This document shows, one piece after another, positions 1 through 57,308 of a stretch of DNA of 57,308 nt. This DNA is from a virus (Duplodnaviria > Caudoviricetes): positions 1 to 57,308 of IMG/VR virus record IMGVR_UViG_3300044972_000184; one strand, 5' to 3'. A program made the position numbers and the translations under genes. How positions within the stretch are numbered: position 1 is the first letter of the stretch; every line of letters begins with the position of its first letter. The notes beneath the pieces are model-generated. The model did no database searches. It saw only the letters and a list, made by a program, of their open reading frames with translations, and was not told where the DNA came from.

Positions 1-127
1 TCGGCAAACGATACGCAGACTTCTCTCCACCCGAACTGGCCGCCTACGGATCGTACTGCATCAACGATACCGAACTGACATACGCCCTGTTCCACAAGCT
101 GAAGCCACAGATTCCGACGCACGAGTT
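1..127. repeat. 127-bp terminal direct repeat, copy 1 (circular-assembly overlap)
   Basis: Identical to 57182-57308; lies inside the DNA polymerase ORF; 127 is a common assembler k-mer size. Confidence 0.95.
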
Positions 128-11800: not shown

Positions 11801-14800
11801 GACCTGCCGCCTTGAGGCGGTCGATCTCGTCCTTGTTCGGCGTCAGCACCCCGTTCTCCACGAAGAACAGGGGCGGGCCGTTCAGTTTGCGGACATCCGT
11901 GATGCGCGACTCGGCCAGCGACTGCGCGGCGTAGACCAGCCCGCTGACCTGCTCCTGCACTTTCTTTGCCGAGTTGAAGATCGCGCGGTTGCGCTCGTTG
12001 CTCCTGACCCGGACGCGCGTGGCGATGCCGTTGGTCATTTGCAGGATGTCGTACAGACGCTGTGCGCCGGGGTTCTTGCGACCACGGAACACCTGAAGGC
12101 TGAGGAACTGCCCGACGAACCGGTCCAGCTTGTTGGCAGTGGGTCCGACTTCGTCCACGAACCTGCGCCATGCGCCGGCCATATCGCTGGGTGCCTGCCA
12201 TCCAGCAAAGCGAGAGTCCACGATGGTCTGCTGCGCTCCATGCAGATCGCCCGCCGTGGAGAAGCGACCGGTACCCGCTGGACCATAGCCGTTCTCGACC
12301 ATGTACATGTCAGTGAAGACCTGATCGGTCTGATGGATGTACGGCTTACCCTGCCGCACGTAGGACCGCGAGTGCTTGAGCAGGTGGCGCACCATCTCAT
12401 CACCGAACTTGACGCCCAGCTTGTTGAGGGCGGTCTTGATGGCGTTCCAGATGCGGGCCGCGATGCTGGTGTCGAGGACGCCAGCGAAGTCAGAGAGATA
12501 TTCCTCTACCGCTTCCTCTTTGCTCATGCCCTGCGCCATGTAGGCGTCCACGTCCGCTTGGACATGGGGACTGGACTGGTAGACCTGCGCCATGGTGGCG
12601 TTGAACTTGGCGTTGGGGATGATGCCCCGCAGACCGAAGTGGCCGATGGTCTCGTGCGCCAGCACGAAGTTCAGGTGCTGCTCGTTGGCGATGCGGTCAC
12701 TGAAGATGATGACGTTGCCACCGGCGAACGAGTAGCCTGCTGCCTGTGCGGTATCGAAGTCGCCCTCAGGGCGCGCGGCCAGAGCCTTGCGGTACAGCGC
12801 GGGGTTGCGCTGCATGAAGTCCGCCTGATTGCGGTAGACCCTGACGCTCGGCTTGGTCGCCAGCTTCGACAGAAACTTGTTCACGGCCAGCTTGATGGCC
12901 CCCTGAGACATGGACGTCTCGGGGTTGTTGAACGCCGACAGGGAGAACTTGCCGGTGTCGCTGTCCTTGAGAGTGCGGGTGTCCACGATCTCGACCGGCG
13001 CGGCGCGCTCGTCGCGCTTGCCCTTCAGCAGCTTGGTGCCGACCTCAGGAGCGAGGAACACGGACCGGCCAGCGTCCTTGGGCGTGCCGATCTTGGCAGT
13101 GATGAACTCACCGCCGGCCACAGGGATACGGCTCTGCTCGATCAGGCGCAGCGAACCACGGTCGAAGTAGTCTTGGATCGGTGCCCCACGGTAGGTAGCC
13201 TTGGTATCGCTGGGGTCGATCTCGGTAAACATATCCTCAGCGAACCCGCGAGGACCGTAGTCGTAGGTGGTACCCTCGAAGGTGAACGGCTCGTCCCAGA
13301 TGGCCACGTTGCGCGCCACACCCAGATAGCTTTCGAGGAACCGCTGCAACATCGCCAGCGGAGACGCAGGGTCCACCGCCTTCGGGACAGCAGTAGGCGC
13401 GACAACAGCAGCCGGTGCCTGCTTGGCCTCAAGGACAGCAGCGACCTGCTCACGGATCGCTGGGTCAGCGATCTTGCTGATCCCCTTGACCTTGCCACGG
13501 AGGGGGCGTGTGTCCTCCAGACGACCGGCATCGAGCATGAACTGGAGCCACGGGGCAACGTCAGTACCGGAGACAGCCGACAGCCCTTCGGTCTTTGCAT
13601 CCCTGATCTGCGCGGTGAAGACTTTGCTGATCGTCGCGCGCTGCTTGGCCGTGAACGTGGTGTTCTCGATGAACGACCGTGCCTTATCAGTCAGAGCCTT
13701 GCGCGCCTTGGCTTCCCCCGACGTGATCTTATCGAAGTACCCGACGCTGACGACGTCGTAGATGGCGTCCTCGTACGCATCATCCACCTTGGTGTAGGTC
13801 TCAGCCACCTCAGTGGCCGCAGCCAGCCGCTCAGAGTCAGACATATCTGACCGCTCAACCGCAGTGGTCGACGGACCTACAGCTTTCCGAACAGCTTCCG
13901 CTTTGGGCTGCTGAACAGGCTCGGGCTGGGCGGGCTGCGCTTCTGGCTGCGTTGCTGCGGCGACAGGCGCTCCGGTAGCTTGTCCAGTTGTGCCTCCGGC
14001 ACCGCGCTTGAGACCTTGTCCGCCACGTCCGGCAGGTTGCGTTCGAGCCACCGCAGTTGGCTTTGGCTTTTCACCTGCACGGAGAGTCCTTCCCTTGGGC
14101 GGAGTGGGTGGTGTCGGCGGTTCAGGTTCGGGTTCTACAACTGGCTCGACCTTCAGCTTCTTTGCCTTCGGCGCGGTCGCCCCCTTCTTACGAGCCAGCT
14201 TCTGTTTGCCGGGAGCGACAGGTTCCACGGGTGCAGCGACAGGTGCAGCCTGCGCGGTATACTGACCCAGCGTGTCGCCTTCGTTACCGATGAACTCCTG
14301 AAGCTGCGAGGTGCGCTGCTCATCAAGGCCAAGCGACGGGTCAGTCGCGCCCTGCACCGCAGCAACGTACTGCTGTGCGATACTATCGACTAGCTCAGGG
14401 GGCGCGATCTCGCCGCGCTGCACGATGGCAGTGTACTCATCCAACTGCGTGTTGAAGTCTTGGGCTTCGGGATTCAGCAGCGGGGGCATAGCGAAGTTCT
14501 GCCCGCCAAACATCGGAAGCTGCTGTTGCTGGTCGATGTTGTCGAACAGCGGCAAGCCTTCTGGCTCAGCCGTGCGTTCAGGCGTCGTAATCTGGCTGCT
14601 GTCAAAGCGCGGCGACATCGCCTCGACCCCGCCCTCCGGCGTCTGGAGAGGACCGAGGTTCCCCGGAGCCGTGGCAAACAATTCGCCCTGCCGCTCGACA
14701 GCGAAGTCAGCGTTTAGTGATGGTTGCTGTGGGCCAACGCGCGTACCAGATGCGCCACCTTCGAGGGGAAGTTCACCCTGCGCCATGCCCTGCTCAGGGT

Positions 14801-16088
14801 TGCCGTTCCCCAATACGTCTGCCGGAGTGCCGCGCTTGAGGTTGGCGACAGCGCCGATGGGACCACCGATGGCGGCACCGGCGGCGAACGAGTTGATGAG
14901 GCGCTGGATGTTCTTCGGGTCGGAGAAGTCTTGGTCGGACAGGCCAAGCAGCAGGGCTTCCTGCCCGGCTTCAGTGGACCCTTCGAGTGCAGCGCCAGTG
15001 GCAAGACCCGTACCGGCACGGCGAAGCATATCCCCACGGCGCGCGACCTGCGCTCCACTGCGGACGGCGGTACCGAACACACGGCTGGCCAGTGCGTACT
15101 CCGGCAGCAGGTCCATGGCGGCGTAGGGGATCGAACCGAACAGCGCCGTCAGGCGGGCACCAACGTCTTCAGCGTCAGCACCCTGATCCCTGAGTTCCCC
15201 GTAGATGTCGGACGCACCCATCTGGAGAGAGTTGGCTGTTGCAGCAGCAGTGGCCCCTGCCAGACCGGCGGCGCTCTTGAGGATTTTGCTCTCGGCTTGG
15301 TCGAGTGCTTCGCCCGCAGCCTTCTTACGGGCTGCCGCCAGCACCGCCTGCTTGAACGCCGTGCGTCCAGCGAGACCAGCGAGGGCACCGCCTGCGGCAC
15401 CGAGTGGACCACCGACTGCACCACCAGCGAAGAAGCCCGCAGCGCCAGCACCGATAGCTTCCAACAGCATGGGACCTTGCTGCGCGAGGTTGGCCACGAA
15501 CCAGTCGACAGCGTCACCACCGGACTCGATATCCGTGAACTGGCGTTCGTACGGCTGGGTGCGCCGCAGGTCCTCGACCTGCTGGTCGACGATGCGCTGC
15601 CCTGTTTCTTCTGCACCGATAAGCTGGAGGCCACGGCCACCCAGCATCTGAAGCTGGTCGATCCCTCGACCGAGGTTGCGCGCCGCCAGAGTACCCCTGC
15701 CGGGGTTGCGGATCGACTGCACATAGCCACCGAACTGCTGCTCAGACAGCGGCTGGAAACCTTGCGGCAGCGGTGCGGCTGTGCCCGCCGTGTCAGCAGA
15801 CTCGACGGCAGCTTGGTAGTCTTCAGCGTCGAACATCCGCCCCTTGGCGAAGAACTGGTTGGTCGCGGGGTTGAACCCGAACGACGGACCAGCGGCAGGA
15901 GGCGGTGCAGTACGACTACGTATGCCCTGAACGGCGCTCTCTCCAAGCGCAGTGATCCCAGCAAGCGCAGTTTCGGTGCTACCCATGCCGCCAAGGCTGC
16001 CACCGAGTGACGGTGGAGCCAGTGGACTAGAGGGATCGCCCGCCGGTGGAAGCAGCGGGTTGTTGAACGTCACACCGGCACGGGCCAT
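8808..16088 (-). CDS. Large internal virion/ejection protein (polyvalent-protein-like) with zincin-like motif
   Basis: 2426 aa, last gene of the virion operon; Gly/Ala-rich hydrophobic N-terminal part; LAHETIGH motif; YTPLLREG resembles PLxRFG-type regions. Confidence 0.75.
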   Translation of the reverse strand: MARAGVTFNNPLLPPAGDPSSPLAPPSLGGSLGGMGSTETALAGITALGESAVQGIRSRTAPPPAAGPSFGFNPATNQFFAKGRMFDAEDYQAAVESADTAGTAAPLPQGFQPLSEQQFGGYVQSIRNPGRGTLAARNLGRGIDQLQMLGGRGLQLIGAEETGQRIVDQQVEDLRRTQPYERQFTDIESGGDAVDWFVANLAQQGPMLLEAIGAGAAGFFAGGAVGGPLGAAGGALAGLAGRTAFKQAVLAAARKKAAGEALDQAESKILKSAAGLAGATAAATANSLQMGASDIYGELRDQGADAEDVGARLTALFGSIPYAAMDLLPEYALASRVFGTAVRSGAQVARRGDMLRRAGTGLATGAALEGSTEAGQEALLLGLSDQDFSDPKNIQRLINSFAAGAAIGGPIGAVANLKRGTPADVLGNGNPEQGMAQGELPLEGGASGTRVGPQQPSLNADFAVERQGELFATAPGNLGPLQTPEGGVEAMSPRFDSSQITTPERTAEPEGLPLFDNIDQQQQLPMFGGQNFAMPPLLNPEAQDFNTQLDEYTAIVQRGEIAPPELVDSIAQQYVAAVQGATDPSLGLDEQRTSQLQEFIGNEGDTLGQYTAQAAPVAAPVEPVAPGKQKLARKKGATAPKAKKLKVEPVVEPEPEPPTPPTPPKGRTLRAGEKPKPTAVARTQPAGRGGQGLKRGAGGTTGQATGAPVAAATQPEAQPAQPEPVQQPKAEAVRKAVGPSTTAVERSDMSDSERLAAATEVAETYTKVDDAYEDAIYDVVSVGYFDKITSGEAKARKALTDKARSFIENTTFTAKQRATISKVFTAQIRDAKTEGLSAVSGTDVAPWLQFMLDAGRLEDTRPLRGKVKGISKIADPAIREQVAAVLEAKQAPAAVVAPTAVPKAVDPASPLAMLQRFLESYLGVARNVAIWDEPFTFEGTTYDYGPRGFAEDMFTEIDPSDTKATYRGAPIQDYFDRGSLRLIEQSRIPVAGGEFITAKIGTPKDAGRSVFLAPEVGTKLLKGKRDERAAPVEIVDTRTLKDSDTGKFSLSAFNNPETSMSQGAIKLAVNKFLSKLATKPSVRVYRNQADFMQRNPALYRKALAARPEGDFDTAQAAGYSFAGGNVIIFSDRIANEQHLNFVLAHETIGHFGLRGIIPNAKFNATMAQVYQSSPHVQADVDAYMAQGMSKEEAVEEYLSDFAGVLDTSIAARIWNAIKTALNKLGVKFGDEMVRHLLKHSRSYVRQGKPYIHQTDQVFTDMYMVENGYGPAGTGRFSTAGDLHGAQQTIVDSRFAGWQAPSDMAGAWRRFVDEVGPTANKLDRFVGQFLSLQVFRGRKNPGAQRLYDILQMTNGIATRVRVRSNERNRAIFNSAKKVQEQVSGLVYAAQSLAESRITDVRKLNGPPLFFVENGVLTPNKDEIDRLKAAGRIEFKQARDGFEYPVTLIDGSTRMEKFAGIPDLKEDSIEWKGYESLRESMDDAAIDLLRARYSATLADRNVSFRQFDELVEGKLTDAEKKFLDDLLTTYRNLYAEGTKQDEEGNTVFDRAAMQRADDFLVAVNRSVLNLKEGYDAIGAQFKDQVPDDTVAKLRELSKRIKLGEDKFVVQTRMKQLMIDSLSTKDADLYTRRSLAIGYTPLLREGAYQLRIQAINPRTGQPVKLDEASRNKLVYMQMESESQVVRLADELNTLLSADGKPKRYTLKAYNADTQTVEDTEVVLRASAERALDAVTGPPGFNLNEIQYGLRQLNINLTPTEVENVVVAMTRQNAAARNRLQRSNVPGAERDAIKAISKHIDSRASTIAKTEMRPYLNELMNLSMRSSQELWNGNKAELDRLKKQAETSGTTTDRRNYNRYKYMFETTNPKGGAERGNEFYNEASRTVQFLNESRDVSTSNFESGATAARLRSFASAVQLGGSIATAVMNFIGVYTNGIPFLATYNDRNGFGGGFGAGAAISEYHRALGQVGAPGVTDTKLNTAEFYADMSEADLKKYGLTRNEAKFIAAEIREGRMIPAQSNALLNTSRGYADSPFLRRFTEVWMAPFNTSEQAARRSLGLAAFRLEFARQKLDKKTDQEAYDAASRFAAETLDVTMGEYGVLNRPPAWRGGIQTILYMYKVYPTTAIQLLANMDRKGQIAMLFMLLLFSGLQGLPFAEDLEDIVDTIAQALGLTMGSIRAEGTKMLESALPGASVPLMQGVMNMVLPVDIGAKLSLGGQIPGTGILLAGADVTRELQDIAGPMPAAIIQSGKTVYNALRLPFSDQVRLPDVLRETPVTMLRALGDTMAYAESGMVVDKRGYTVTGEATIGTFAARLTGFQPPETAQQYAAIRVANRITDYRRDTVTMYRTAWVRAKMAGDNDAARDIEKAVAKWNEGAAGTGLRINNFSQGNQRALREAKRPAGERALRTTPMDNREDIAAIYDMMGAT

Positions 16089-24991: not shown

Positions 24992-25401
24992 GCGCCGGAC
25001 GTCAGTGAGTAGGACAGAACGAGTACCCTCGGCGGGTTGGTCGTCCCTCGGCGGCGGAGGCCCATAGTGCGTGTACCGGAATCAAAGCCGCTCCCCGCCG
25101 GTCTGGATTCCGCGACAACATACGTGGACGTCAACGGAGTCCAAATGGTAAACACAGGCGGAGTACTCTGTGTAAAGTCTTCCGATATCTCGTAGTTATC
25201 AGCGAACGATTCGGCAGACGGTACGAGCCAAGTGAACACGGAGAAGGACCCCGGCCCAGTGAACGCCTGCCCGTTACCGTTGTTGTAGAACTGCCAAGAC
25301 ACACTGGCATCGCTCCCCCCTGTGGGAGCTATATCAGACAGAGACGCTGGGATACCGCTCAGTGTCAGGTTCTCTTGGTATGATGCCAGCAGGGCGAACA
25401 T
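24988..25401 (-). CDS. Hypothetical beta-rich tail-fibre-associated protein
   Basis: ATG overlaps the fibre stop (TGATG); 137 aa. Confidence 0.6.
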   Translation of the reverse strand: MFALLASYQENLTLSGIPASLSDIAPTGGSDASVSWQFYNNGNGQAFTGPGSFSVFTWLVPSAESFADNYEISEDFTQSTPPVFTIWTPLTSTYVVAESRPAGSGFDSGTRTMGLRRRGTTNPPRVLVLSYSLTSGA

Positions 25402-26900
25402 CAGTCGACCCCGGTGCCGGAGACAATCGCCTCGTTCGTGGAGATGAACCACAGGGTCGCCATCCCGTAGCGAGGGATTGTCCGTTCGCCAGTGAACGTG
25501 GTGCCCGCAAGACGCAGGGTAACGCCGGTGAACGGGGTCAATGCGGCTGACCCGGTGAAGTTATTATAAACCGTCACCACCGCACCTGTCGGCATAGTGT
25601 TTGTGGGTACCAGAAAACTGGAGCTACCTAGCACAACGACCTTGCCGGCCTCACTCGCCTGCAACGCTGGCGTTGCGCCTGACCGGAACACAGGTTCCAG
25701 AATAGCGCCGGCTATACCCGTTGGACCCGTTGGACCGGCAGCGCCCGTCGGACCGTTGCCGCTAGGACCTGTCGGACCAGTGGGGCCGGGCGAACCCGTA
25801 GGACCGGAAGCCTGCGGACCAGTGGGACCAGTGGGACCAGCGGCAGTGCTTGCTGCACCCGCCGGACCTGTCGGACCTGTGGGGCCGCCGCCGGATATAC
25901 CTTGCGGACCTGTGGGACCCGTCGGGCCGGATGAGCCGGTGGGGCCGCCGCCGCTAGGGCCTGTCGGACCAGTGGGGCCAGCGCCGCCCGAACCCGTCGG
26001 ACCGCCCGGACCTGTAGGACCAGTGGGGCCGGTGCCACCCGAACCCGTCGGACCAGCAGCACCTGTCGGACCAGTAGGACCAAGGCCGCCGGAACCCGTC
26101 GGACCAGCAGCACCTGTCGGACCTGTGGGGCCACCGCCGGATATGCCCTGCGGACCAGTGGGTCCTGTCGGGCCAGCGACCGTGCTTGCATCGCCTTGCG
26201 GACCAGTGGGTCCCGGAGGCCCAACGATCTGGCCGACGTTATCCCACGCAGCGCCGTCCCATACGTAGAGATCACCATCAGCCGTGACGATGTATGCGTC
26301 GTTGACTGTGTTGCCCGTGGAAGGGAGAGCGCCAACAGTGGCTACCTCGCCCTTGAAAATAATGGACGTGCCTTGCAGTCCTTGCGGGCCAGTGGGACCT
26401 GTCGGACCTGCGACAGTCGACCCGGAACCCGCCGGGCCAGTCGGACCGGCTACCGTACTAGCTGCACCGGTGGGACCGGTTGCGCCCGCCGGACCGGTGG
26501 GGCCGACTATCGTGCTTGCTGCACCAGTAGGGCCAGTCGGACCCGTGGGACCGACGATCCTGCCCACGTCATCCCATGCAGCACCATCCCAGACATAGAG
26601 GTTGCCGTTCGCCTGTACAATGTAGGCATCGTTGACGGCGTTACCCGTGGGCGGGAGGTCTCCTACAGTGGCAACGCTACCCTTGAACGTGATCGACACG
26701 CCTTGCGGACCCATCGGACCAACGATGCCGCCGTACGGCAGGCTCAGATATGCCGTGACCCCGTCGCCAATCTTGAACTGATCGGTGTCCGTTTCGAGAA
26801 CAAGTTCACGGTCAGCCAAGATGGGATTGAACGAAGTCCAGCGCGCCAGCGTGTCGCCGCGCAGCGCGAACCCGATGGTGGATGATGGGGTGATCGGCAT
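25401..26900 (-). CDS. Collagen-like tail fibre 2 (Mtd-N-like anchor, GPT repeats)
   Basis: LRGDT.A.W...NP.L..RE...ETDT..FKIGDG N-terminus; long G-P-T triplet tracts. Confidence 0.88.
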
Positions 26901-28774: not shown

Positions 28775-31054
28775 TTATGGGTTTATTGAGAAGGCCACAC
28801 CGTCGCCCGATGGGGAACCCGATGGCAAAGTCGTCGGGTTGGCATACTTGGTTCCAAACCCAGTGGTTGAGTTCCACGGGTAGGCAGTAATGAAGGGCGA
28901 CGACTGATGCGCAACAGCAATCGCATTACCCGCAATAGAGAACGCGACACTCAAAGCATTACTCGTCGGCAATGTTGCCGGGTCAGCGTATTTTGTGCCA
29001 AGACCGGACGTGGTGAATGGATATACAGTGATTCGCGGCGAAGTGTAATGTGCTATCGCGATACTGTCACCTGCGGGGGAGATCGCTATGCCCTCGGCGT
29101 AGCTCGTCGGCAGTGTCGCCGGGTTGGCATACTTGGTGCCGAACCCGGTGGTTGAGTTCCATGGGTAGACGAAAATAAACGGAGTACCGTTCGATGCTAT
29201 CGCAATGGTGTCACCTGCGGGGGTAAACGCTACGCCTTTGCCGGGATTACCCGGCAACGTCGTTGGGTCAGCGTACTTTGTACCAAAACCGGTGGTGGAG
29301 TTCCACGGGTAGGCCGTAACAAATGGCGAGTTCTGATGCACCACTGCAATGGCGTTGCCTGCGGGAGTGAACGCTACATCGAAACTCCCGAAAGTCGGTA
29401 GTGTCGCCGGGTCAGCATACTTGGTGCCGAACCCAGTAGACGAGTTCCATGGATAGGCTGATACATAGGCAGTGGTAGTATTACTGCCGTTCGCCGTGGC
29501 GATAGCGTCACCTAACGGCGAAAAAGTTACACCGTTAGGCGAAGTCGGCAGTGTTGTCGGGTCAGCGTATTTGGTGCCAAAACCCGCCATGGACCATGGG
29601 TAGACAATGAGTTTGCCGCCTACGACAGCCATTGCATCACCAGACGGGGTAAACGTCACGTCTCGGCCTACCGCTGGGTCCAATGTAGCTGGATTGGCGT
29701 ACTTGGTACCGAAGCCTGCCGCTGACCATGGGTATGCGGTGATGAACGGACTTGACTCGTGCGCTAGGGCGACAACTTCGTTTCTTAACGGCAAGCCTGT
29801 TTGATACAGATAATTTGCCATCCACTTGGTGGCTGTAACCTTAATGCACATCAGCGTGTTGTTTGCTGCCACGACCAGAGGTCCCGTGGTGTTGTTTCCA
29901 AACACCAACGTGTCGTTCGTTATCTTGACGGTGACTAGAACACCGCCGTTCTCCACCGTAAACAGCAAAACCGTGCCGATGGGGAAGGCTACGCTGCCGT
30001 TTGATGGGATGGTGTAAGTGCGGGTGACTGTGTCGCTGGCCGGGTGGAATATCTGCTTGCCCGCATCACCCAGCACAAGCGTGTAGTCTGCTGACCGGCT
30101 GTTCTGCGGGAAACTGACCGCACCGCCCGCCGCTGCGCTAGATACCCACGACGTTCCGTCGCTAGTCAGGACGTTACCTGAAGTGCCGGGAGCGACAGAC
30201 GTATCCCATGCCGTGCCGGTCGAGATGACCACGCCTGCTGCCGGGTAGACTGTGGGGCCGGTCGGGCCAGTCGGCCCTAGGTTGCCAACATCGCCAGTAG
30301 CGCCCGTCGGACCAGTGGGGCCTGCTACCGTTGAAGCGTCACCTGTAGCGCCCGTTGGCCCAGTCGGGCCGGCAACCGTCGAGGCGTCACCCTGCGCGCC
30401 TGTAGGGCCTGTCGGGCCTGCAACTGTGCTTGCGCTGCCGGGAACGCCTGTGGGGCCTGTGGGACCTGCTACAGTGCTTGCCTCGCCCTGCGGACCGGTG
30501 GGACCAACTGGACCAGCGACCGTGCTATCTGCACCCGCAGCGCCGGTCGGACCTGTCGGACCAGTGAGACCTGTCGGACCTGTCGGACCAGCGACCGTGC
30601 TACCTGCACCCGCCGCACCGGTGGGGCCGGTCGGACCCAGATTACCTGTCGGGCCAGTCGGACCCAGATTACCCGTCGGACCGGCTGATCCCGTCGGACC
30701 GGTAGGGCCGACGATCTGGCCGACGTTAGTCCAAGCCGAGCCGGTCCAAGCATACAGATCGCCATCAGCCGTGACGATGTAGGCGTCGTTGACGGCGTTA
30801 CCCGTGGGCGGGAGGTCGCCAACGGTGGAGACAGTTCCCTTGATGTTGATCGACGCGCCTTGCGGTCCAGTCGGACCAACGAGGCCGCCGTAGGGCAGGC
30901 TCAGATAAGGGGTGACACCATCACCGATCTTGAACTTATCGGTGTCGGTTTCCAGCACCAACTCGCGGTCAGCAAGGACCGGGTTGAACGAGGTCCAGCG
31001 CGCCAGCGTGTCGCCGCGCAGGGAAAGCTGGAAGATCGAGGCGCTAATGGTCAC
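28775..31054 (-). CDS. Collagen-like tail fibre 1 with C-terminal 7-repeat beta-propeller
   Basis: Mtd-N-like start, GPT collagen, seven YPW..GFGTKYA(D/N)P.TL repeats. Confidence 0.88.
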
Positions 31055-48701: not shown

Positions 48702-49326
48702 GAAGCGCAAAGCGGCGCTGATCGAGCAGCACCGTCACATTAACGTCGACTATGACTGGTGGGACTGCACCTACGACGACTTCATCGAGACAGCCAAGGC
48801 CAAGGGGTTCTACACCACAACCAAGGACATGTCTTTCAGCGGGTTCTGGTCACAGGGTGACGGTGCCTCCTTCACTGGCGGTGTCGATGTGCCGGCTTTC
48901 ATTGCCTACGTTAAGGCGGAGAACGCCAAGCTGGTAGCTGAGGGCAAGACTGCCCCCCTCGACCCCTACCCATGGATCGACAAGCTGTACCAGCACGGTA
49001 GCGACATCGAGATCAAGGTTGTTCGCAACAGCCGTCACTATGCCCACGAGAACACCTGTGGGATCGACATCGGGTTTGCCGGGTCGTTCGCTTACATGCT
49101 CGACGACGGTGACGATGAGACCCGTAGTGCAGTGCTCGGAGCATGGGACGAAGCACTCAGCGCCGACATCGACCAGCTTGAGAAGGACATCGAGTCGACA
49201 CGCTATGCCTTGTGCAGAGAACTCTACCGGTCACTGGAGTCAGAATATGAACATCTCACCAGCGATGACGCTGTGTGGGACACCATCGAAGCCAACGATT
49301 TACACCAAGAGGAGGACGACGAATGA
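48673..49326 (+). CDS. Acidic conserved protein (family often labelled 'antitoxin' on mobile elements)
   Basis: FSGFWSQGDGASF; LYR.LE.EYE.LTSD.AV...I.AN. Confidence 0.65.
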   Translation: MTTTSTGISEKRKAALIEQHRHINVDYDWWDCTYDDFIETAKAKGFYTTTKDMSFSGFWSQGDGASFTGGVDVPAFIAYVKAENAKLVAEGKTAPLDPYPWIDKLYQHGSDIEIKVVRNSRHYAHENTCGIDIGFAGSFAYMLDDGDDETRSAVLGAWDEALSADIDQLEKDIESTRYALCRELYRSLESEYEHLTSDDAVWDTIEANDLHQEEDDE

Positions 49327-49922
49327 GCCGACTGACCAACAGCATCCGTGAGGAAATGGCCCGCAAACTGGTGGCCTATCGCTACACCAACGACGCCAAG
49401 GAACTGGTGCAACTGAACCGCAAGCTGGCTGACCGAGCCTATGCCTACCTCTACTCCAAGGAAGTGCTGGCAGCGATGGCGGTGGTGAACAAACACTTCC
49501 CCGACGCCTTCACCGTGACCAGTGACTACAGGGGTATGCCGGTCAACGCCGGCGGTTACAGGGTCAACATCGGCGGCAATCTCCATAGCCGTTGGGTGAG
49601 GATCGAGCAGGCCAAGCACGACGGGTACAAGATCGCCGGTCGCTACACTGAACACGGCATCACCGACGAGGCGCTGTCCGAGGAGATCAAGAACTTCGCC
49701 ACGCGGTACAGGCAGTTCGATGATCTCTGTGCAGCGGCATACAGTGAAGCCATGGCAGTGCTGAGCACCTGCTCCACCGGCAAGAAGCTGGCAGCAGCGT
49801 GGCCTGAGGCTATGCCTGTCATCGGTGATCTCATCCCTGAGGCTGACCGGACGCTGCCCACTGTGCAGGTTGCCGATGTCAACGCCAAGTTCGGCCTGCC
49901 CCCTGAGTCCAAGGCTGAGTGA
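49323..49922 (+). CDS. Nmad5-like protein
   Basis: RLT..IRE N-terminus; T.KKL...WPEA C-terminal motif. Confidence 0.7.
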   Translation: MSRLTNSIREEMARKLVAYRYTNDAKELVQLNRKLADRAYAYLYSKEVLAAMAVVNKHFPDAFTVTSDYRGMPVNAGGYRVNIGGNLHSRWVRIEQAKHDGYKIAGRYTEHGITDEALSEEIKNFATRYRQFDDLCAAAYSEAMAVLSTCSTGKKLAAAWPEAMPVIGDLIPEADRTLPTVQVADVNAKFGLPPESKAE

Positions 49923-49959: not shown

Positions 49960-50148
49960 ATGACAAACGTATCTGCACAACTCCGCCTGTTCACCCTCCG
50001 CAAGTGGCGCAAGGGGCCGGTCATCACCGACCAGTTCGGAGACGTGATCTACTACGACAACAAGATGGAGGCGAAGCTGGCTCGTGACCGGATCAGGGGC
50101 ACCACCGTGGTGTCCTACGGCCCCGACCACCACCTGTACGATGTCTGA
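49960..50148 (+). CDS. 62-aa hypothetical protein
   Basis: AAGGA SD; Y.DNK..AK..RD..VS.GPDH. Confidence 0.65.
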   Translation: MTNVSAQLRLFTLRKWRKGPVITDQFGDVIYYDNKMEAKLARDRIRGTTVVSYGPDHHLYDV

Positions 50149-50473
50149 TCCGGCCATCCTCTGGAGCCTACGGCTTGCACCAGCCCGAACCTTTTCCGGC
50201 ATCGGCATCGGCATCGGCAACGGCCACGGCAACGGTCACGGCTATGGCGGCTACGGCTACGGCGGCGGCGGCGGCTACGGCTACGGCAACGGCATCGGCA
50301 TCGGCTACGGCTACGGCATCGGCATCGGCTACGGCTACGGTCACGGCGACGGCGACGGCGACGGCTACGGCGACGGCTACGGCAACGGCATCGGCATCGG
50401 CTACGGCTACGGCATCGGCATCGGCTACGGCTACGGCGACGGCGGCGGCATTAGCAGGACCTACGAAGCATAG
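50141..50473 (+). CDS. Gly-X repeat protein A (110 aa)
   Basis: Leader ILWSLRLAPART, (GGC-NNC)n core, tail GDGGGISRTYEA. Confidence 0.7.
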   Translation: MSDPAILWSLRLAPARTFSGIGIGIGNGHGNGHGYGGYGYGGGGGYGYGNGIGIGYGYGIGIGYGYGHGDGDGDGYGDGYGNGIGIGYGYGIGIGYGYGDGGGISRTYEA

Positions 50474-50482
50474 GAGATACAC

Positions 50483-50737
50483 ATGGACGATCACTTCAAG
50501 ACAGCCTGCATCATCGTCGGGACAGCAGGTTTCGTCTGGTACGCACCGACAGTGACCGACAACGGGGAGTATATGATGCTCACCAAGGCACGGATCATCC
50601 GTGTCTGGGGTACTGACCAAGGCTTGGCACAACTTATCCCCGGCCCCCGCAAGGAGACCGTACTCGATACACCCGGAGATGTTGTACTGGCCAAGTCTGC
50701 CTTCCTGTTCGCCATCCCATGCAAGACATGGCCGTGA
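50483..50737 (+). CDS. Small beta protein (DUF6948-like)
   Basis: AGGAG SD; IIV...GFVW..L..AR.IR.WGT..GLAQL..GP. Confidence 0.7.
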   Translation: MDDHFKTACIIVGTAGFVWYAPTVTDNGEYMMLTKARIIRVWGTDQGLAQLIPGPRKETVLDTPGDVVLAKSAFLFAIPCKTWP

Positions 50738-50943
50738 TCCTCTGGAGCCTACGGCTTGCACCAGCCCGAACCTTACCCGGCAACGGCAACGGCTACGGCA
50801 TCGGCTACGGCAACGGCTACGGCGACGGCGGCGGCTACGGCGGCGGCTACGGCTACGGCGGCGGCTACGGCGGCGGCTACGGCTACGGCGGCGGCTACGG
50901 CAACGGCGACGGCGGCGGTCGAAGCACAACTTACAAAGCATAA
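50728..50943 (+). CDS. Gly-X repeat protein B (71 aa)
   Basis: Same leader ILWSLRLAPART, GY/GN/GG core, tail GDGGGRSTTYKA. Confidence 0.7.
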   Translation: MAVILWSLRLAPARTLPGNGNGYGIGYGNGYGDGGGYGGGYGYGGGYGGGYGYGGGYGNGDGGGRSTTYKA

Positions 50944-50996: not shown

Positions 50997-51992
50997 ATGC
51001 GTCCTGCACTTCTCAAGACCACTCTCATGTCGATGTTCCGCCGCCAGCGTACTGTCTGCATCGAAGGCCCACCCGGTGGCGGCAAGACCACCATCGTCAA
51101 GGACGTGGCCAAGGAACTCGATGTTCCCTACATCCACCTCCACATGCCGCTTCGCAAGGTCGAGGACTTCGGTATGCCCAAGTTCAACGACGACGGCACC
51201 CACTTCTTCACCGTGCCAGACTGGTTCCCATCCGTTGGCTCTGCCCATGACACTGGCAAGGGCGGCATACTGTTGCTGGATGATCGCAACCAAGCCGATG
51301 CAGACATCCAGAAAGTTATCGCCAACATCTGCCAAGAGCGTGAGCTTAACGGCTTCAAGCTGGCCGATGGCTGGCAGGTGGTGTCCACTGGTAACAGGCA
51401 GCAGGATCGTGCCGGTGCCAACCGTGTGCTGGGGCATCTCGGCAACCGCGAGACTGTGTTGGAGTTCGAGACTGACCTCAACGACAGCACCGACTGGATG
51501 ATGCGTAACGGTGTCAAGCCGGAGGTTGTGGCGTTCCTGCGCTTCCGGTCTGGTCTGCTGCATGACTACGATCCGCAGCGCCGCAGCAATCCGACACCCC
51601 GTTCATGGGTCGAGGGTGTCAGCGATAACCTCGGTGTTGTGCCCGCTGAGGCAGAGTACGAGGTGTTCAAGGGCGATGTCGGTGAGGGTGCAGCGGCAGA
51701 GTTCACCGGGTTCATGCGTATCTGGCGCAAGCTGCCCAACCCTGACGCTGTGCTACTCAATCCGACCACCTCTGAGGTGCCGACCGATCCGGCTACCCTG
51801 TACGCCCTGTCTGGATCACTGGCACAGCGTCTCACCGTGTCCAACTTCGACCGTGCTGCACAGTATGCTGAGCGTATGCCGGCAGAGTTCTCTGTGCTTA
51901 TGGTGAGCCTCGCTCTCAAGCGTGACCCCATGTTGGCGTCGACACAGGCGTTCATCCAGTGGTCGCTCAAGCATCAGGACGTGTTGTTCTGA
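50997..51992 (+). CDS. MoxR-type AAA+ ATPase
   Basis: GPPGGGKT, Walker B LLLDD, TGNR..DRAG, NR, PTPRSW. Confidence 0.9.
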   Translation: MRPALLKTTLMSMFRRQRTVCIEGPPGGGKTTIVKDVAKELDVPYIHLHMPLRKVEDFGMPKFNDDGTHFFTVPDWFPSVGSAHDTGKGGILLLDDRNQADADIQKVIANICQERELNGFKLADGWQVVSTGNRQQDRAGANRVLGHLGNRETVLEFETDLNDSTDWMMRNGVKPEVVAFLRFRSGLLHDYDPQRRSNPTPRSWVEGVSDNLGVVPAEAEYEVFKGDVGEGAAAEFTGFMRIWRKLPNPDAVLLNPTTSEVPTDPATLYALSGSLAQRLTVSNFDRAAQYAERMPAEFSVLMVSLALKRDPMLASTQAFIQWSLKHQDVLF

Positions 51993-51993
51993 G

Positions 51994-52221
51994 ATGCGAC
52001 CTAAGGTTGCATACGAATGGCTGGCGTTTCTCAGGGAGCGCCAGCCCCACAAACGGCTGGAGTTACAGCACCTGTCGAACCTGATGGTCAGTCACAGGTA
52101 CCAGCAACAACATGCCACCAACAGGCTGCGTACTCTGGCCACCCAGTACCCTGATCTATGGATCGTATTCCAAACCCAGCAGCGGTTGCTGGGTAACTTC
52201 ACAGCGGAGGACTTCCAATGA
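51994..52221 (+). CDS. 75-aa hypothetical protein
   Basis: Fills the gap between ATPase and next gene. Confidence 0.55.
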   Translation: MRPKVAYEWLAFLRERQPHKRLELQHLSNLMVSHRYQQQHATNRLRTLATQYPDLWIVFQTQQRLLGNFTAEDFQ

Positions 52222-53066
52222 AGCTCAATGATCGTGCCCTACTGGTATCTCTCGGTGTGTCCGAGTGGACTGCCAAGAAACTGGACAAGCGTGTGACCAA
52301 GCAGGTCGCCACCGATAACCGTGCCAGCAGCAAGGCTGGTCGGTACAACAAGTCTCTGTTCCCCATGAATGATCTGCTGGAGAACGTCCACGGAAAGACC
52401 CGTGTCATCCGTGCCGAGTTGACCAAGAACACCTTGCCTTGGGGCATCGACGGCACCCGCATCCTGCCATCTAAGAACTACCTCCAGTTCATGACCCAGT
52501 TCCGTCGTGAGAAGGGCGAGTGGCAGACGTTGGTGCGGGAGTTCCTCGACAACTACGATGCGCTGGTCGACGAGTCCAAGCGGTGGCTCGGTGACATGTA
52601 CGAAGCCAACGACTACCCGCCTGTCGATGCCGTGGCCAAGAAGTTCAAGATGGACATGGCTGTGCTGCCTGTGCCGACCAACGACTTCCGTGTGGAACTG
52701 GCAGACGATGAGATCGCCCGCATCCAAGAGGACTTGGAGGCACGGATGGCGACGGTCCAACAGGAAGCGATGGCTGACTGCTGGCACCGGCTGCACAAGC
52801 ACGTCGAACATATCGCCACCAAGATGGCTGACCCGGCGGCTATCTTCCGCGACAGCATGATCGACAACGCACGAGAGACCTGTGATCTCTTGACACGTCT
52901 GAATGTTTCTGATGATCCTCACCTTGAGGACATGCGGCAACAAGTGGAGGCGAAGTTGCTTAGCCATCACCCCGATGTGTTGCGTACTGACCTCGACCTG
53001 AGGGCTGACGCTGCGGCTGAGGCACGCAAGATCATGGACGCCATGTCGGTGTTCATGGGCAACTGA
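52218..53066 (+). CDS. DUF3150-like helical protein
   Basis: W...K.D, TLPW...G.RILP, DYP, F..S, LNV..DP.L. Confidence 0.7.
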   Translation: MKLNDRALLVSLGVSEWTAKKLDKRVTKQVATDNRASSKAGRYNKSLFPMNDLLENVHGKTRVIRAELTKNTLPWGIDGTRILPSKNYLQFMTQFRREKGEWQTLVREFLDNYDALVDESKRWLGDMYEANDYPPVDAVAKKFKMDMAVLPVPTNDFRVELADDEIARIQEDLEARMATVQQEAMADCWHRLHKHVEHIATKMADPAAIFRDSMIDNARETCDLLTRLNVSDDPHLEDMRQQVEAKLLSHHPDVLRTDLDLRADAAAEARKIMDAMSVFMGN

Positions 53067-53089
53067 TTACCAACCGAGGAGGACACACC

Positions 53090-53443
53090 ATGACTGACAT
53101 CAAGACTGCGTTCATCAGCAAGATCGCCACCCAACTGGGCAACCTCAACGCCAAGTACATGATCGTCACCGAGGCAGGTGACGTCGTTAGCAACGACAAG
53201 GGGTTCGTCTACAACCCACCGGTCAAGTTCGGTGCGCCGGCTCGGTACGTGGATAGTTATCTGGAGACGATGAAACCGGGTGACGTGATCCAGATTCCCT
53301 ACCCGCACGACATCCCGGCGGACAAGGTCAAGCAGGCGGCATCGTCACGCTGTTATACCATGTTCGGCAAGGGCAACTACCTGACCCAGAGCCACGACAC
53401 CTACGTCGAGGTGCTTTGCACCGACATCGACCCGGCCAAGTAA
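53090..53443 (+). CDS. Hypothetical protein flanked by direct repeats
   Basis: AGGAGG SD; 117 aa. Confidence 0.75.
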   Translation: MTDIKTAFISKIATQLGNLNAKYMIVTEAGDVVSNDKGFVYNPPVKFGAPARYVDSYLETMKPGDVIQIPYPHDIPADKVKQAASSRCYTMFGKGNYLTQSHDTYVEVLCTDIDPAK

Positions 53444-53456
53444 GGAGGACACACCA

Positions 53457-54563
53457 ATGACCGACATCAAAGCACTGGAGCGGCGCTTGGCCAAGGCCAA
53501 GACATCACTGATCCTTGAGCATCCGTTCATCGGGACCATCGCTCTCAACATGCAGTACATCGTCACCCCCGACGTGCCGACCGCTGCCACCAACGGCAAG
53601 TACATCAAGTTCAACCCGGACTTCATCGACCCGCTGTGTGATGAGCAGCTTAAGTTCCTCGTGGCACACGAGTGCTTCCACCCCATGTTCGAGCACAACT
53701 ACCGCCGTGGTACCCGTATCCCCGGCAAGTGGAACCGTGCCGCTGACTACGTCATCAACCACCACCTCGTGGCCGAGAAGATCGGCAAGTTCATCGACGG
53801 CGGCTGTCTCAACCCCAACCTGTACAACGCAGGCAACGGCACCAGCGACGGTATCTACAACCTGCTGCCCGATGAGCCTGACGATAACAGTGACGCCTAC
53901 GATGACTGCGAGGACGGCGGTGCCACCGAGACGGAGCGGCAGCAAGCACAGGCAGAGATGCGTGTACAAGTTGCTCAGGCAGCACAGGCTGCCAAGATGA
54001 TGGGCAAACTGTCGGCCAACATGGAGCGGCTGGTCGGTGAGATACTCCAGCCCAAGGTCAACTGGGCTGACGTGCTACGCCAGTTCATGCAGAAGATCAG
54101 CGCCGGTGGTCGGTCATACGAGCGGCCTAACCGCCGCTTCCTGCACCAAGGTGTCTATCTGCCCGGTCCGTCCGGTGTCACGATGGGTCCGCTGGTGTTC
54201 GCTGTCGACTGCTCTGGTTCCATCACTGCCGAGCAGATCAGCCAAGCTGCCGGTGAGATCACCGCTGTGTTCGAGGACTTCGCTCCTGCTGCACTGCACG
54301 TGGTCTACTTCGACAGCGAGGTGTGCCACTACGATGTGTTCACCCGTGATGAGGAGCCGGTCATCAAGCCGCACGGCGGCGGTGGTACTGCCTTCAGCCC
54401 TGTGTTCCGGCACATCGAGGCCAACGACATCGAGCCGTGCGCTTGCATCTTCCTGACCGATTTGTACTGTTCCGACTTCGGTCCGGAGCCGGACTACCCG
54501 GTGCTGTGGGTCAGCGATGGCGCTGACAAGGCACCCTTCGGTGAGGTGGTAGCATGGAAGTAG
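53457..54563 (+). CDS. Metallopeptidase-like + vWA protein (DUF2201-like)
   Basis: TAATNG, AHECFH (HExxH), WN.A.D..IN; MIDAS DCSGS, GGGGT.F, FLTD. Confidence 0.9.
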   Translation: MTDIKALERRLAKAKTSLILEHPFIGTIALNMQYIVTPDVPTAATNGKYIKFNPDFIDPLCDEQLKFLVAHECFHPMFEHNYRRGTRIPGKWNRAADYVINHHLVAEKIGKFIDGGCLNPNLYNAGNGTSDGIYNLLPDEPDDNSDAYDDCEDGGATETERQQAQAEMRVQVAQAAQAAKMMGKLSANMERLVGEILQPKVNWADVLRQFMQKISAGGRSYERPNRRFLHQGVYLPGPSGVTMGPLVFAVDCSGSITAEQISQAAGEITAVFEDFAPAALHVVYFDSEVCHYDVFTRDEEPVIKPHGGGGTAFSPVFRHIEANDIEPCACIFLTDLYCSDFGPEPDYPVLWVSDGADKAPFGEVVAWK

Positions 54564-56546: not shown

Positions 56547-56788
56547 AAGTCGTACTCAACCCTAACCACTTCCGTATCAGGGCGAGGCGGGAAGACGGCA
56601 CCATATGGCTAACGCACGAGAAGATCGGGGACCCGGTGCGCCCGGTGAAGGACCTGACGAACGAGATACTTCTCTGCCTGTGTGCTGACCTGAACGGGGT
56701 CGACGGCACCAAGAAGGTCGAGCGGTCCGTCATGTTCAACGACGGGTGGAAGTGTAAGGTAACGGTGGAAGTGGAGGGAGATAACTGA
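56543..56788 (+). CDS. Hypothetical protein
   Basis: Coupled ATG at 56543; stop overlaps the polymerase ATG. Confidence 0.6.
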   Translation: MKVVLNPNHFRIRARREDGTIWLTHEKIGDPVRPVKDLTNEILLCLCADLNGVDGTKKVERSVMFNDGWKCKVTVEVEGDN

Positions 56789-57308
56789 TGGACATCTATA
56801 CGATAGATTGGGAAACTCACTATACACGGGAGTATAGTTTATCCCGCCTGACAACCGAAGCCTACGTCCGGTCGCCGCTGTTTGAGGTGATCGGCATGGG
56901 CATCAAGAAGAACGACGGCCCCACCAAGTGGGTACCCAAGCCGCTGGTCAAGCCGTTCCTCGACACCATGCGCCCGGTGCTGGAGAAGGCAGCGGTCCTC
57001 TGCCACAACACGGCGTTCGATGGGGCGATCCTGTCGTGGCACTACGACATCAAGCCGACGCTCTGGTTGGATACCCTGTCGATGGCCCGACCGATCCACA
57101 GTGTGGACGTGGGCGGCAGCCTCAAGGCGCTGGTGGCGTACTATAATCTGGGGGCGAAGGGTACCGAGGTGGTGAACGCCCTCGGCAAACGATACGCAGA
57201 CTTCTCTCCACCCGAACTGGCCGCCTACGGATCGTACTGCATCAACGATACCGAACTGACATACGCCCTGTTCCACAAGCTGAAGCCACAGATTCCGACG
57301 CACGAGTT
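56788..57308 (+). CDS. polA: Family A DNA polymerase, N-terminal 3'-5' exonuclease part (continues at position 128)
   Basis: MDIYTIDWET (ExoI), HNTAFD (ExoII), YCIND (ExoIII); absent from the ORF track because it runs off the end. Confidence 0.92.
   Translation, partial: MDIYTIDWETHYTREYSLSRLTTEAYVRSPLFEVIGMGIKKNDGPTKWVPKPLVKPFLDTMRPVLEKAAVLCHNTAFDGAILSWHYDIKPTLWLDTLSMARPIHSVDVGGSLKALVAYYNLGAKGTEVVNALGKRYADFSPPELAAYGSYCINDTELTYALFHKLKPQIPTHE
57182..57308. repeat. 127-bp terminal direct repeat, copy 2
   Basis: Identical to 1-127. Confidence 0.95.

Follow-up and report, generated by a model that had tools for sequence, protein, structure and literature searches.

A phage gene module pairing a predicted Sm-like small beta-barrel with leader-tagged, glycine-alternating tails

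Background

Why would a phage place two short open reading frames (ORFs), each opening with the same leader and continuing with glycine at every second residue, on either side of a gene for a small all-beta protein? The question is raised by positions 49,960 to 50,943 of a tailed-phage genome (Caudoviricetes, IMG/VR record IMGVR_UViG_3300044972_000184), whose full 57,308 nucleotides form the stretch analysed here and are called the window. Three genes follow one another on its plus strand: GlyA (110 aa, 50141..50473), the gene of an 84-aa DUF6948-like protein predicted to fold as an Sm/LSm-like small beta-barrel (50483..50737), and GlyB (71 aa, 50728..50943). An interpretation made from the letters of the DNA alone, the sequence-only reading, had described the pair of Gly-X ORFs as paralogs selected in the Gly frame and of slippage-variable length, linked to DUF6948-like genes, and had suggested that they encode either a precursor or decoy peptide handled by the small central protein or a client of an adjacent MoxR-vWA chaperone (vWA, von Willebrand factor A). 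The frame, the leader peptide, the length change and the linkage all stood up to analysis, while the chaperone client did not and the precursor or decoy was left without support. We find that GlyA and GlyB are genuine genes, belonging to a phage family that is widespread. Both join a short lineage-specific N-terminal peptide to a (Gly-X)n tract that alternates strictly and has a predicted disordered structure, and their constant partner is the neighbouring small DUF6948-superfamily protein with the predicted Sm fold.

Results

To describe the pair itself, we begin with the 38-bp string that occurs twice in the window (50156-50193 and 50737-50774, both on the plus strand), with 0 mismatches between the copies and 0.00 copies expected from 100 dinucleotide-preserving shuffles. 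The first copy encodes ILWSLRLAPART. GlyA opens with a 19-residue leader, MSDPAILWSLRLAPARTFS (50141-50197), which is followed by an 85-aa Gly-X core (50198-50452), the tail SRTYEA (50453-50470) and a stop codon (50471-50473). GlyB has the same order, with a 17-residue leader, MAVILWSLRLAPARTLP (50728-50778), a 48-aa core (50779-50922), the tail STTYKA (50923-50940) and its stop at 50941-50943. Codon use in the cores is extremely narrow: GlyA has GGC 44, GGT 2, TAC 14, TAT 1, GAC 5 and AAC 4, and GlyB has GGC 29, GGT 1, TAC 10, GAC 2 and AAC 4, so that GGC accounts for 73 of the 76 glycine codons and the X codons are nearly all NNC. Tandem Repeats Finder reported periods of 6, 12, 18, 24 and 30 over 50197-50451 and 50778-50918. 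The common leader and the GGC-NNC hexamer cores were therefore just as the sequence-only reading had described them. Its conserved tail pattern, GDGGG.S.TY.A, is likewise matched by both ORFs (GDGGGISRTYEA and GDGGGRSTTYKA, with 2 synonymous codon differences, ggc/ggt and acc/act, and 3 replacements), but it is common to these two paralogs only and does not extend to the wider family.

Each Gly-X ORF also overlaps the stop of its upstream gene, as had been claimed. The GlyA start, ATG 50141, overlaps a TGA at 50146-50148, and GlyB, starting at ATG 50728 or GTG 50734, overlaps the TGA of the 84-aa gene at 50735-50737. The GTG may be the true GlyB start; it gives the 4-nt GTGA overlap that is the commonest arrangement among relatives. 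Neither GlyA nor GlyB has its own ribosome-binding site, unlike the 84-aa gene between them, which carries GGAGA. In close relatives of this locus, a 62-aa gene is followed immediately by the barrel gene, without a GlyA. The 38-bp identity looks like the trace of a recent duplication, in which GlyB appears to have been copied to a new intergenic site as GlyA.

Several further observations concern the arrays themselves. Isoleucine (ATC) at X, which gives GlyA its GIGIG tracts, is unusual, being found at 14 of 1020 X positions in our whole sample. GlyA also contains a 64-nt perfect internal repeat (50277-50436) with a spacing of 96 nt. In one DNA sequencing run (X3), a contig with a depth of 6.3 skips exactly 96 nt of the GlyA core and is identical elsewhere, with 64 nt fitting either side of the joint; this may be a shorter GlyA allele or an assembly collapse, and we do not rely on it. 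The ESM Atlas includes the GlyA sequence, with a disordered model (predicted local distance difference test, pLDDT, 0.37) and with viral hypothetical proteins in the nearest clusters. A search of Rfam gave no family at E<=1. A fusion by programmed frameshifting was considered and rejected, as the two ORFs differ in frame relative to the genes before them, GlyB being at -1 to the 84-aa gene and GlyA at +1 to its own upstream neighbour; the last 110 nt showed no slippery site (X XXY YYZ), and start codons are kept at the leader.

To what extent is the pairing of barrel and array general? A scan with the 84-aa family alignment gave a homology-selected set of 27 viral loci with 33-71% identity. 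In 26 of them, 1 to 5 Gly-X ORFs lie on the same strand beside the barrel gene, and the exception (L023) starts inside the barrel gene. We also assembled an array-selected set of at least 118 viral loci, chosen by (GGCNAC)x8 alone; fractions of this set are given out of 118. A family hidden Markov model (HMM) built from 203 domains matched 77 of these loci, in every case on the same strand as the array, with 73 upstream of it, a median gap of 57 nt and 74 within 300 nt. Upstream sequence was available for 26 of the 41 other loci, and a Pfam scan placed DUF6948 above threshold directly upstream in 18 of the 26, with the two fused in one ORF in L046. At the remaining 15 loci the array lies at the locus edge. 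In total, 95 of 118 array loci sit beside a DUF6948-type gene, and the linkage that the sequence-only reading had described holds in both directions. For 54 of the 77 HMM-positive loci, the Gly-frame start falls between -12 and +20 nt from the partner stop, and 24 of these are 4-nt GTGA or ATGA overlaps, an arrangement typical of translational coupling. Within each genome of the homology-selected set, every Gly-X copy has the same leader; from lineage to lineage the leader varies, for example TLWSLRLV, MTHLYWPRLLPGQIIT, MIWGFLRPLVW, FKLTRRLLGLxDGxLMTLDG and MTPMEWAFLHPQVG.

Cultured phages carry the pair as well. Four with DUF6948, namely Iodobacter PhiPLPE, Ralstonia NK-7, Pectobacterium Koroua and Vibrio IKEMa6-1, all have a downstream Gly-X ORF, in which GGC makes up 35/35, 65/65, 39/40 and 40/40 of the glycine codons, respectively. 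Together with Rheinheimera phage Barba (about 36% GC), where gp018 is the barrel and gp017 the Gly-X ORF, this makes five cultured lineages. The NK-7 ORF is annotated as a 'fibroin heavy chain-like protein', while in PhiPLPE an 82-codon stop-to-stop Gly-X frame (L153 1161-1409, between gp84 and gp83) overlaps the DUF6948 stop and is unannotated in RefSeq. The pair was also found in GenBank MW202613, where the ORF is labelled 'lamprin', and in a Janthinobacterium metagenome-assembled contig. Across 150 neighbour ORFs scanned from 19 array loci (of 205 ORFs in 25 eligible loci), we observed DnaB, DNA methylases, ERF, YqaJ, SSB, NinB, HTH regulators, a sigma factor and a Tad2-like protein; RecT was also seen near the pair in a scan of upstream frames. 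Searches of a paper library listed no paper on a Gly-X/DUF6948 module and none mentioning DUF6948, and the main text of the Barba papers makes no mention of glycine, repeat, indel, gp017 or gp018.

The Gly-X ORFs are, by the pattern of their codon changes, translated genes. Paralogous leaders within L019, L020 and L016 differ mostly at synonymous sites, and in the LTRRLLGL group (7 distinct copies) none of the 18 third positions is invariant and 14 of the 18 codon columns show synonymous changes alone, although these copies were chosen by peptide pattern, which favours a synonymous outcome. Leader peptides kept through synonymous change indicate that the ORFs are translated, and the leader is therefore conserved as more than DNA. 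Lineages that write the repeat with GGG (L027, L030) or with mixed codons (L015, L025 and one L019 paralog) keep Gly-X, and alternative frames change meaning there, which bears out the Gly frame as the selected one. An Ala-Thr frame, with the variable base at the wobble position, was rejected on the same ground: L027 and L030 would read Gly-Thr, and Gly-X is kept in every lineage.

In other phages, the barrel and the array form one protein. Searching proteins with the L046 fusion gave 354 matches at E<=1e-5. Among the 120 of these that were listed, 19 of the 21 longer PF22253-labelled proteins contain Gly-X runs, with the domains in either order: the tail may follow the barrel, precede it, or stand between it and an extra N-terminal domain. 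On re-scanning with Pfam, all 7 of 7 fusion proteins matched DUF6948 at 66-89 bits, and DUF7666 was found in two other Gly-X fusions. The AlphaFold2 model of a fusion has a barrel with pLDDT >90 and a Gly-X part with pLDDT <50 and no secondary structure. Set beside these fusions, the window carries a composite protein in split form.

The fused proteins include several unusual forms. DUF7666 (PF24703, 83-106 bits), an uncharacterised phage domain, is fused to Gly-X arrays in L080 (5-556, minus strand) and in proteins P0227 and P0232. In L052 and L070, the array is N-terminal to a conserved domain of ~150 aa that has no Pfam match, and this ORF lies directly downstream of DUF6948. Four three-part fusions (P0226, P0229, P0239 and P0284) consist of an N-terminal domain of ~45 aa (ADWL.E.G...AWLR), a Gly-X array and DUF6948; the N-terminal piece had no Pfam hit.

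The 84-aa partner belongs to the DUF6948 superfamily, judging by intermediate sequences and a shared predicted fold. Its sole Pfam match is DUF6948 (PF22253), an uncharacterised viral domain, at 14.7 bits and E 0.034, and its homologue in MW202613 scores 13.7 bits; the gathering cut-off is 27. The sequence-only reading had called the gene DUF6948-like; the protein itself falls below the Pfam threshold. Of 25 relatives, 18 match DUF6948 at E<=1 (best 6.4e-5), and an HMM of the window family also picks up proteins whose Pfam DUF6948 scores are 73-108 bits (L050, L066, L085, L098 and L112, with 77.8 bits for L050 and 73.4 for L066). In the ESM Atlas, DUF6948 occurs in all 30 of the 30 clusters nearest the 84-aa protein, with a template-modelling (TM) score of 0.76 to a cluster that is 98% DUF6948. 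The family is large, with 1024 cluster representatives at E<=1e-3, many of them tandem two-domain forms. Members annotated as DUF6948 resemble the window protein in size (about 85 residues), in the order of strands and helices, in their top structural match and in the placement of a Gly-X ORF downstream; the window protein carries the signature ARIIRxWGTxxGLAQLxxGP where aligned DUF6948 relatives have SRRLWYWK.

The 84-aa protein models as an Sm/LSm-like small beta-barrel. Its AlphaFold2 model is confident and all-beta (pLDDT 91.6) and has the bent five-stranded beta-barrel fold of Sm, LSm and Hfq proteins. The best structural match by VIA-align was the Lsm chain 6ppv_A (Z 8.8, root-mean-square deviation 2.2, 67 residues aligned), and the next 30 rows are mostly Sm/LSm chains. 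Foldseek matches were weak (best E 5.6e-3). A bona fide DUF6948 domain, modelled inside a natural fusion, has the same order of strands and helices and the same top match, 6ppv_A, at Z 7.6. An HMM search of PDB sequences found no relative of the family (best E 0.036, an unrelated ciliary protein), and scans of GlyA, GlyB and the 84-aa protein against NCBIfam and PADLOC gave no match. A complex prediction combining the 84-aa alignment with the leader and the start of the core scored 0.01 and gave no answer.

Array length varies within a single phage species, as the sequence-only reading had anticipated in proposing a slippage-variable core. Among Barba isolates, the matched span (60 of 115 isolate genomes) measures 601 nt in 41, 607 in 17, 631 in 1 and 643 in 1. 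The Gly-X ORF is 210, 216, 240 or 252 nt in four records, and the flanking genes are constant in length. Array length changes in these phages by hexamer slippage.

The codons of the arrays are close to fixed, independently of genome GC. The core of Barba1A uses GGC for 29/29 glycines and NAC in 29/29 cases, compared with GGC 12/99 (12 coding sequences; 12/108 by another ORF set) and NAC 103/311 in its flanking genes. Among 1020 X residues there were Tyr 418, Asp 257, Asn 119, Ser 106 (90 of them TCC), Gly 30, His 30 and Phe 20, with a third base of C in 962. The common X codons are all one step from TAC with the final C kept, and Lys, Glu and Gln are nearly absent. In L027 and L030 the repeat is written GGG-NAC, with NAC still at 23/23 and 18/18, which indicates that the NAC constraint is more general than the GGC one. 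The near-fixed GGC and NAC codons suggest a further constraint, acting through mRNA, DNA or decoding. Contributions to this codon lock may come from fast slippage, from selection for composition, from an exact-match codon preference and from avoidance of out-of-frame NTG starts, which any NNT before GG would create. The GlyB mRNA stretch folds worse than all 200 of its shuffles (z +3.0), while the Barba array has z +0.46.

The module lies within a complete 57,308-bp phage genome of ~60% GC with direct terminal repeats. A DNA polymerase gene (phrog_17) at 56788-57306 (+) resumes at 3-1499 (+) across the record ends; together with the terminal repeats, this indicates that the window is a permuted whole phage genome. 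The minus strand carries the structural-gene block, and the plus strand the early replication block, which spans the record ends. Directly upstream of GlyA is the 62-aa ORF (49960..50148, +), which has its own AAGGA ribosome-binding site and whose TGA stop is the one overlapped by GlyA. Its homologues adjoin the 84-aa gene in L002-L006, L008-L010 and L012, it had no match in Pfam or PHROG, and it is a lineage-specific neighbour outside the general module. The same holds for the block at 50997..54563 downstream of GlyB, which comprises a MoxR-type AAA+ ATPase (50997-51992, +), a weak DUF3150-like ORF (52218-53066, +), a 117-aa ORF (53090-53443, +) and a DUF2201 metallopeptidase/vWA protein (53457-54563, +). 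A blastn search of the module region against the phage collection found no match. An antisense ORF of 257 codons (50168-50941, -), running across both arrays and the 84-aa gene, was judged spurious, since the complement of GGCNAC is without stops and the ORF faces a well-supported gene.

Three features elsewhere in the genome were also recorded. A protein with nucleotide-modification-associated domain 5 (Nmad5; E 2.1e-18) is encoded at 49320-49922 (+), just upstream of the module, and among the close loci only L004 has a homologue. Two tail-fibre genes (25401-26900 and 28775-31054, both -) contain collagen-like Gly-X-Y tracts with 9-nt periods and higher-order repeats of 48-75 nt; with their period of 3 residues, these are a separate glycine repeat system unrelated to the Gly-X ORFs. 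A 2426-aa ORF (8808-16088, -) matched only PHROGs of unknown function (phrog_11358 and phrog_21376), at its C-terminal end, and is probably a giant virion-associated protein.

Discussion

On balance, we lean towards reading the module as one protein, a barrel with a disordered tail, that is split between genes and would act early in infection. The tail ORFs of such split modules lack their own ribosome-binding site and start at or overlap the upstream stop (GTGA or ATGA); this overlap suggests that they would be made by translational coupling, about in step with the barrel protein. The conserved leader would then stand in for the covalent link seen in the fusions, docking the tail on the barrel. 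Barrel and tails together would form a multivalent low-complexity assembly early in infection, encoded among replication, recombination and anti-defence genes, and the assembly may act on RNA or single-stranded DNA in the way of small beta-barrel nucleic-acid binders with glycine-rich tails. A bolder form of the idea, which we consider doubtful, is that the Sm-fold DUF6948 barrel recruits detachable, multi-copy (Gly-Tyr/Asp/Asn)n tails through the docking leader, so that phage RNA or replication intermediates become enclosed in a condensate or a fibrous matrix, with the codon-locked (GGC-NAC)n message itself acting as a ligand or decoding control and array length tuned by slippage within populations.

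A number of results weigh against the split barrel-and-tail reading. Nucleic-acid binding and assembly are pure inference, drawn by resemblance to other proteins. A disordered protein tail would not by itself predict codons held as tightly as those of the cores: in the homology-selected loci, GGC makes up 788/883 glycine codons in cores compared with 766/1820 in flanks (89% vs 42%), and NAC 704/727 compared with 2800/4196 (97% vs 67%). The 84-aa protein of the window is sub-threshold for Pfam DUF6948 (14.7 vs 27 bits), and an hhalign comparison of the window-family and DUF6948 alignments, both of them shallow, gave a probability of 0.05 and no match. For small barrels, structural Z scores of 7 to 9 are moderate. 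No Sm1/Sm2 motif and no Pfam LSM or Hfq hit was found in the 84-aa protein even at E<=10, and its model has no N-terminal helix by DSSP. Furthermore, 8 of the 26 array loci scanned with Pfam were without a DUF6948 gene, and other domains were seen at two of these, a DUF7666-Gly-X fusion at one and DUF5832 at the other. Arrays of this kind indicate that the tail is not exclusive to a DUF6948 partner. Finally, one RNA sequencing run (X20) had no cover on the unique parts of the region and is silent on expression; its cover was confined to the repeat bins, at very high depth and 88-95% likeness, so that those reads come from other organisms.

The codon evidence is the natural starting point for two alternatives. 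In one, the nucleic acid is the functional entity, with (GGC-NAC)n RNA or DNA serving as a ligand or signal for the Sm-like protein, replication or recombination, and the peptide being secondary. In its favour is a synonymous constraint that is extreme and independent of genome GC, as seen in the Barba1A core (29/29 and 29/29) against its flanks, in the pooled GGC and NAC shares, and in the third base of C at 962 of 1020 X codons; the predicted fold of the partner is that of RNA-binding Sm proteins, and the GlyB mRNA folds worse than 200/200 of its shuffles. We nonetheless regard it as unlikely, given that the GGG-NAC and mixed-codon lineages all keep Gly-X, leaders hold their peptide despite synonymous change, every lineage has its starts and stops set around the Gly frame, arrays stay in frame within fusions, the Barba array reaches only z +0.46, and no Rfam family was matched. 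A nucleic-acid role may exist in addition to the protein role, not instead of it. The other codon-level alternative is a decoding device, in which runs of GGC and NAC load or sense tRNA-Gly and the four tRNAs reading NAY codons, tuning the coupled downstream genes or buffering defences that target tRNA. The tRNAs for NAY codons (Tyr, His, Asn and Asp) form the queuosine group, and X is indeed Y, D, N or H at 824 of 1020 positions, nearly always as NAC, in ORFs that are coupled to upstream and downstream genes and whose codon choice is independent of genome GC. This idea appears improbable to us, as no queuosine or 7-deazaguanine gene was found among the 54 window ORFs scanned, X is also often Ser (TCC), Phe (TTC) or Gly, and a decoding device would need neither conserved leaders nor fusion to folded domains. 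Arrays of 30 to 150 codons are also far longer than known attenuator leaders.

The two proposals of the sequence-only reading fare worse. A precursor or decoy akin to a ribosomally synthesised and post-translationally modified peptide (RiPP), with the leader recognised by the small protein and the core modified or released, would fit a leader with a hypervariable core, several paralogs sharing one leader per genome and a small invariant partner gene. It is decidedly improbable, as no radical-SAM, YcaO, lanthipeptide or protease family recurs among the 150 neighbour ORFs of the 19 loci or in the window block, the partner models as an Sm-like barrel where a PqqD-like winged-helix recognition element would be expected, and cores can exceed 100 residues and are often covalently fused to the partner domain on either side. 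Direct fusion of the core to DUF6948 argues for one composite protein rather than a processed precursor. There was no chain of the RiPP recognition element (RRE) among the listed structural matches of the all-beta model, an absence that does not amount to exclusion. The idea that the arrays are selfish or neutral, with the ORFs as functionless by-products of an expanding hexamer repeat, draws on the rapid change in length and copy number between related phages and on GlyA looking like a recent GlyB duplicate at a new intergenic site. It is hard to credit for a pair that persists in several host groups and in phages from 36% to 70% GC, keeps its position beside one gene family, conserves its leader peptides, holds its arrays in frame and has near-absent stop, Lys, Glu and Gln codons in its cores. 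We give next to no credence to the arrays being aggregation-prone clients of the MoxR-vWA chaperone. The window and 17 of the 27 closest loci do have MoxR, DUF3150 and vWA genes after the pair, but homologues of the window genes occur in only 6 of 118 array loci and in 3 of the 62 loci of 8 kb or more, and Barba, PhiPLPE, Koroua, NK-7 and MW202613 carry the pair without a MoxR block in the stretches read.

We compared the module with known systems that it resembles in part. Sm and LSm proteins exist in forms with glycine-rich tails, such as Acinetobacter Hfq and the RG tails of eukaryotic Sm proteins. The phage module likewise pairs a barrel, whose likeness in fold comes from a model only, with a low-complexity Gly-rich region. 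Unlike Sm, LSm and Hfq proteins, the 84-aa protein has no Sm1/Sm2 motif, Pfam LSM hit or modelled N-terminal helix, and the phage tail is usually a separate gene, often in multiple copies. Plant GRP7 and bacterial SSB combine a small nucleic-acid-binding domain with a disordered Gly-rich region or linker. Cyanobacterial Rbp1 is described as having a small nucleic-acid-binding domain and a Gly/Tyr-rich disordered region (PMC9333190). The phage module would share this general plan if its barrel binds nucleic acid, and it sits among SSB, ERF, RecT and DnaB genes; GRP7, Rbp1 and SSB differ in having an RNA recognition motif or oligonucleotide-binding (OB) fold and in lacking strict period-2 alternation, hexamer codon locking and a split-gene form.

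Other resemblances lie in the repeat. Silk fibroin-type (Gly-X)n sequences and lamprin have the same strict alternation, yet in the phage ORFs X is Tyr, Asp, Asn or Ser and not Ala or Ser, and the tracts are 30 to 150 residues long in cytoplasmic early genes. The likeness is compositional only and does not reflect homology, and no silk-type sheet was predicted, with array pLDDT <50 in AlphaFold and 0.37 in the Atlas model. Collagen-like and polyproline-II repeats, with Gly at every third residue, differ from the phage period of 2 residues (6 nt) throughout. RiPP precursors have a conserved leader, a variable core, several paralogs and a small partner gene, as here, but the phage module has no co-conserved modifying enzyme, its partner has another predicted fold, and its core is fused to the partner in many phages. 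The Gly-Ala repeat of EBNA1 in Epstein-Barr virus is a viral Gly-X repeat with strongly biased codons that matter beyond the amino-acid sequence. It belongs to a large protein of a eukaryotic virus, has purine-rich codons and acts on the proteasome and translation. The phage repeat shares with it the biased codons of a viral Gly-X repeat but is not related by descent.

Conclusions

The module is common, with 1024 cluster representatives for the 84-aa family, at least 118 viral array loci and five cultured phage lineages, yet it is unnamed, sometimes unannotated (PhiPLPE) and sometimes given the wrong label, 'lamprin' or 'fibroin'. It brings together features seldom seen in bacterial viruses: strict Gly-X alternation, split and fused versions, several leader-tagged copies per genome, length change among isolates of one phage species and a synonymous-site constraint that ignores genome GC. 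It is without a characterised relative and hence new, and could join a known kind once its function is found. If the condensate idea is true, the module would give bacterial viruses their own counterpart of the LSm and Gly/Tyr-rich proteins of granules. Should the tails drive assembly or act at the level of RNA or tRNA, they would open an unstudied layer of early phage-host biology.

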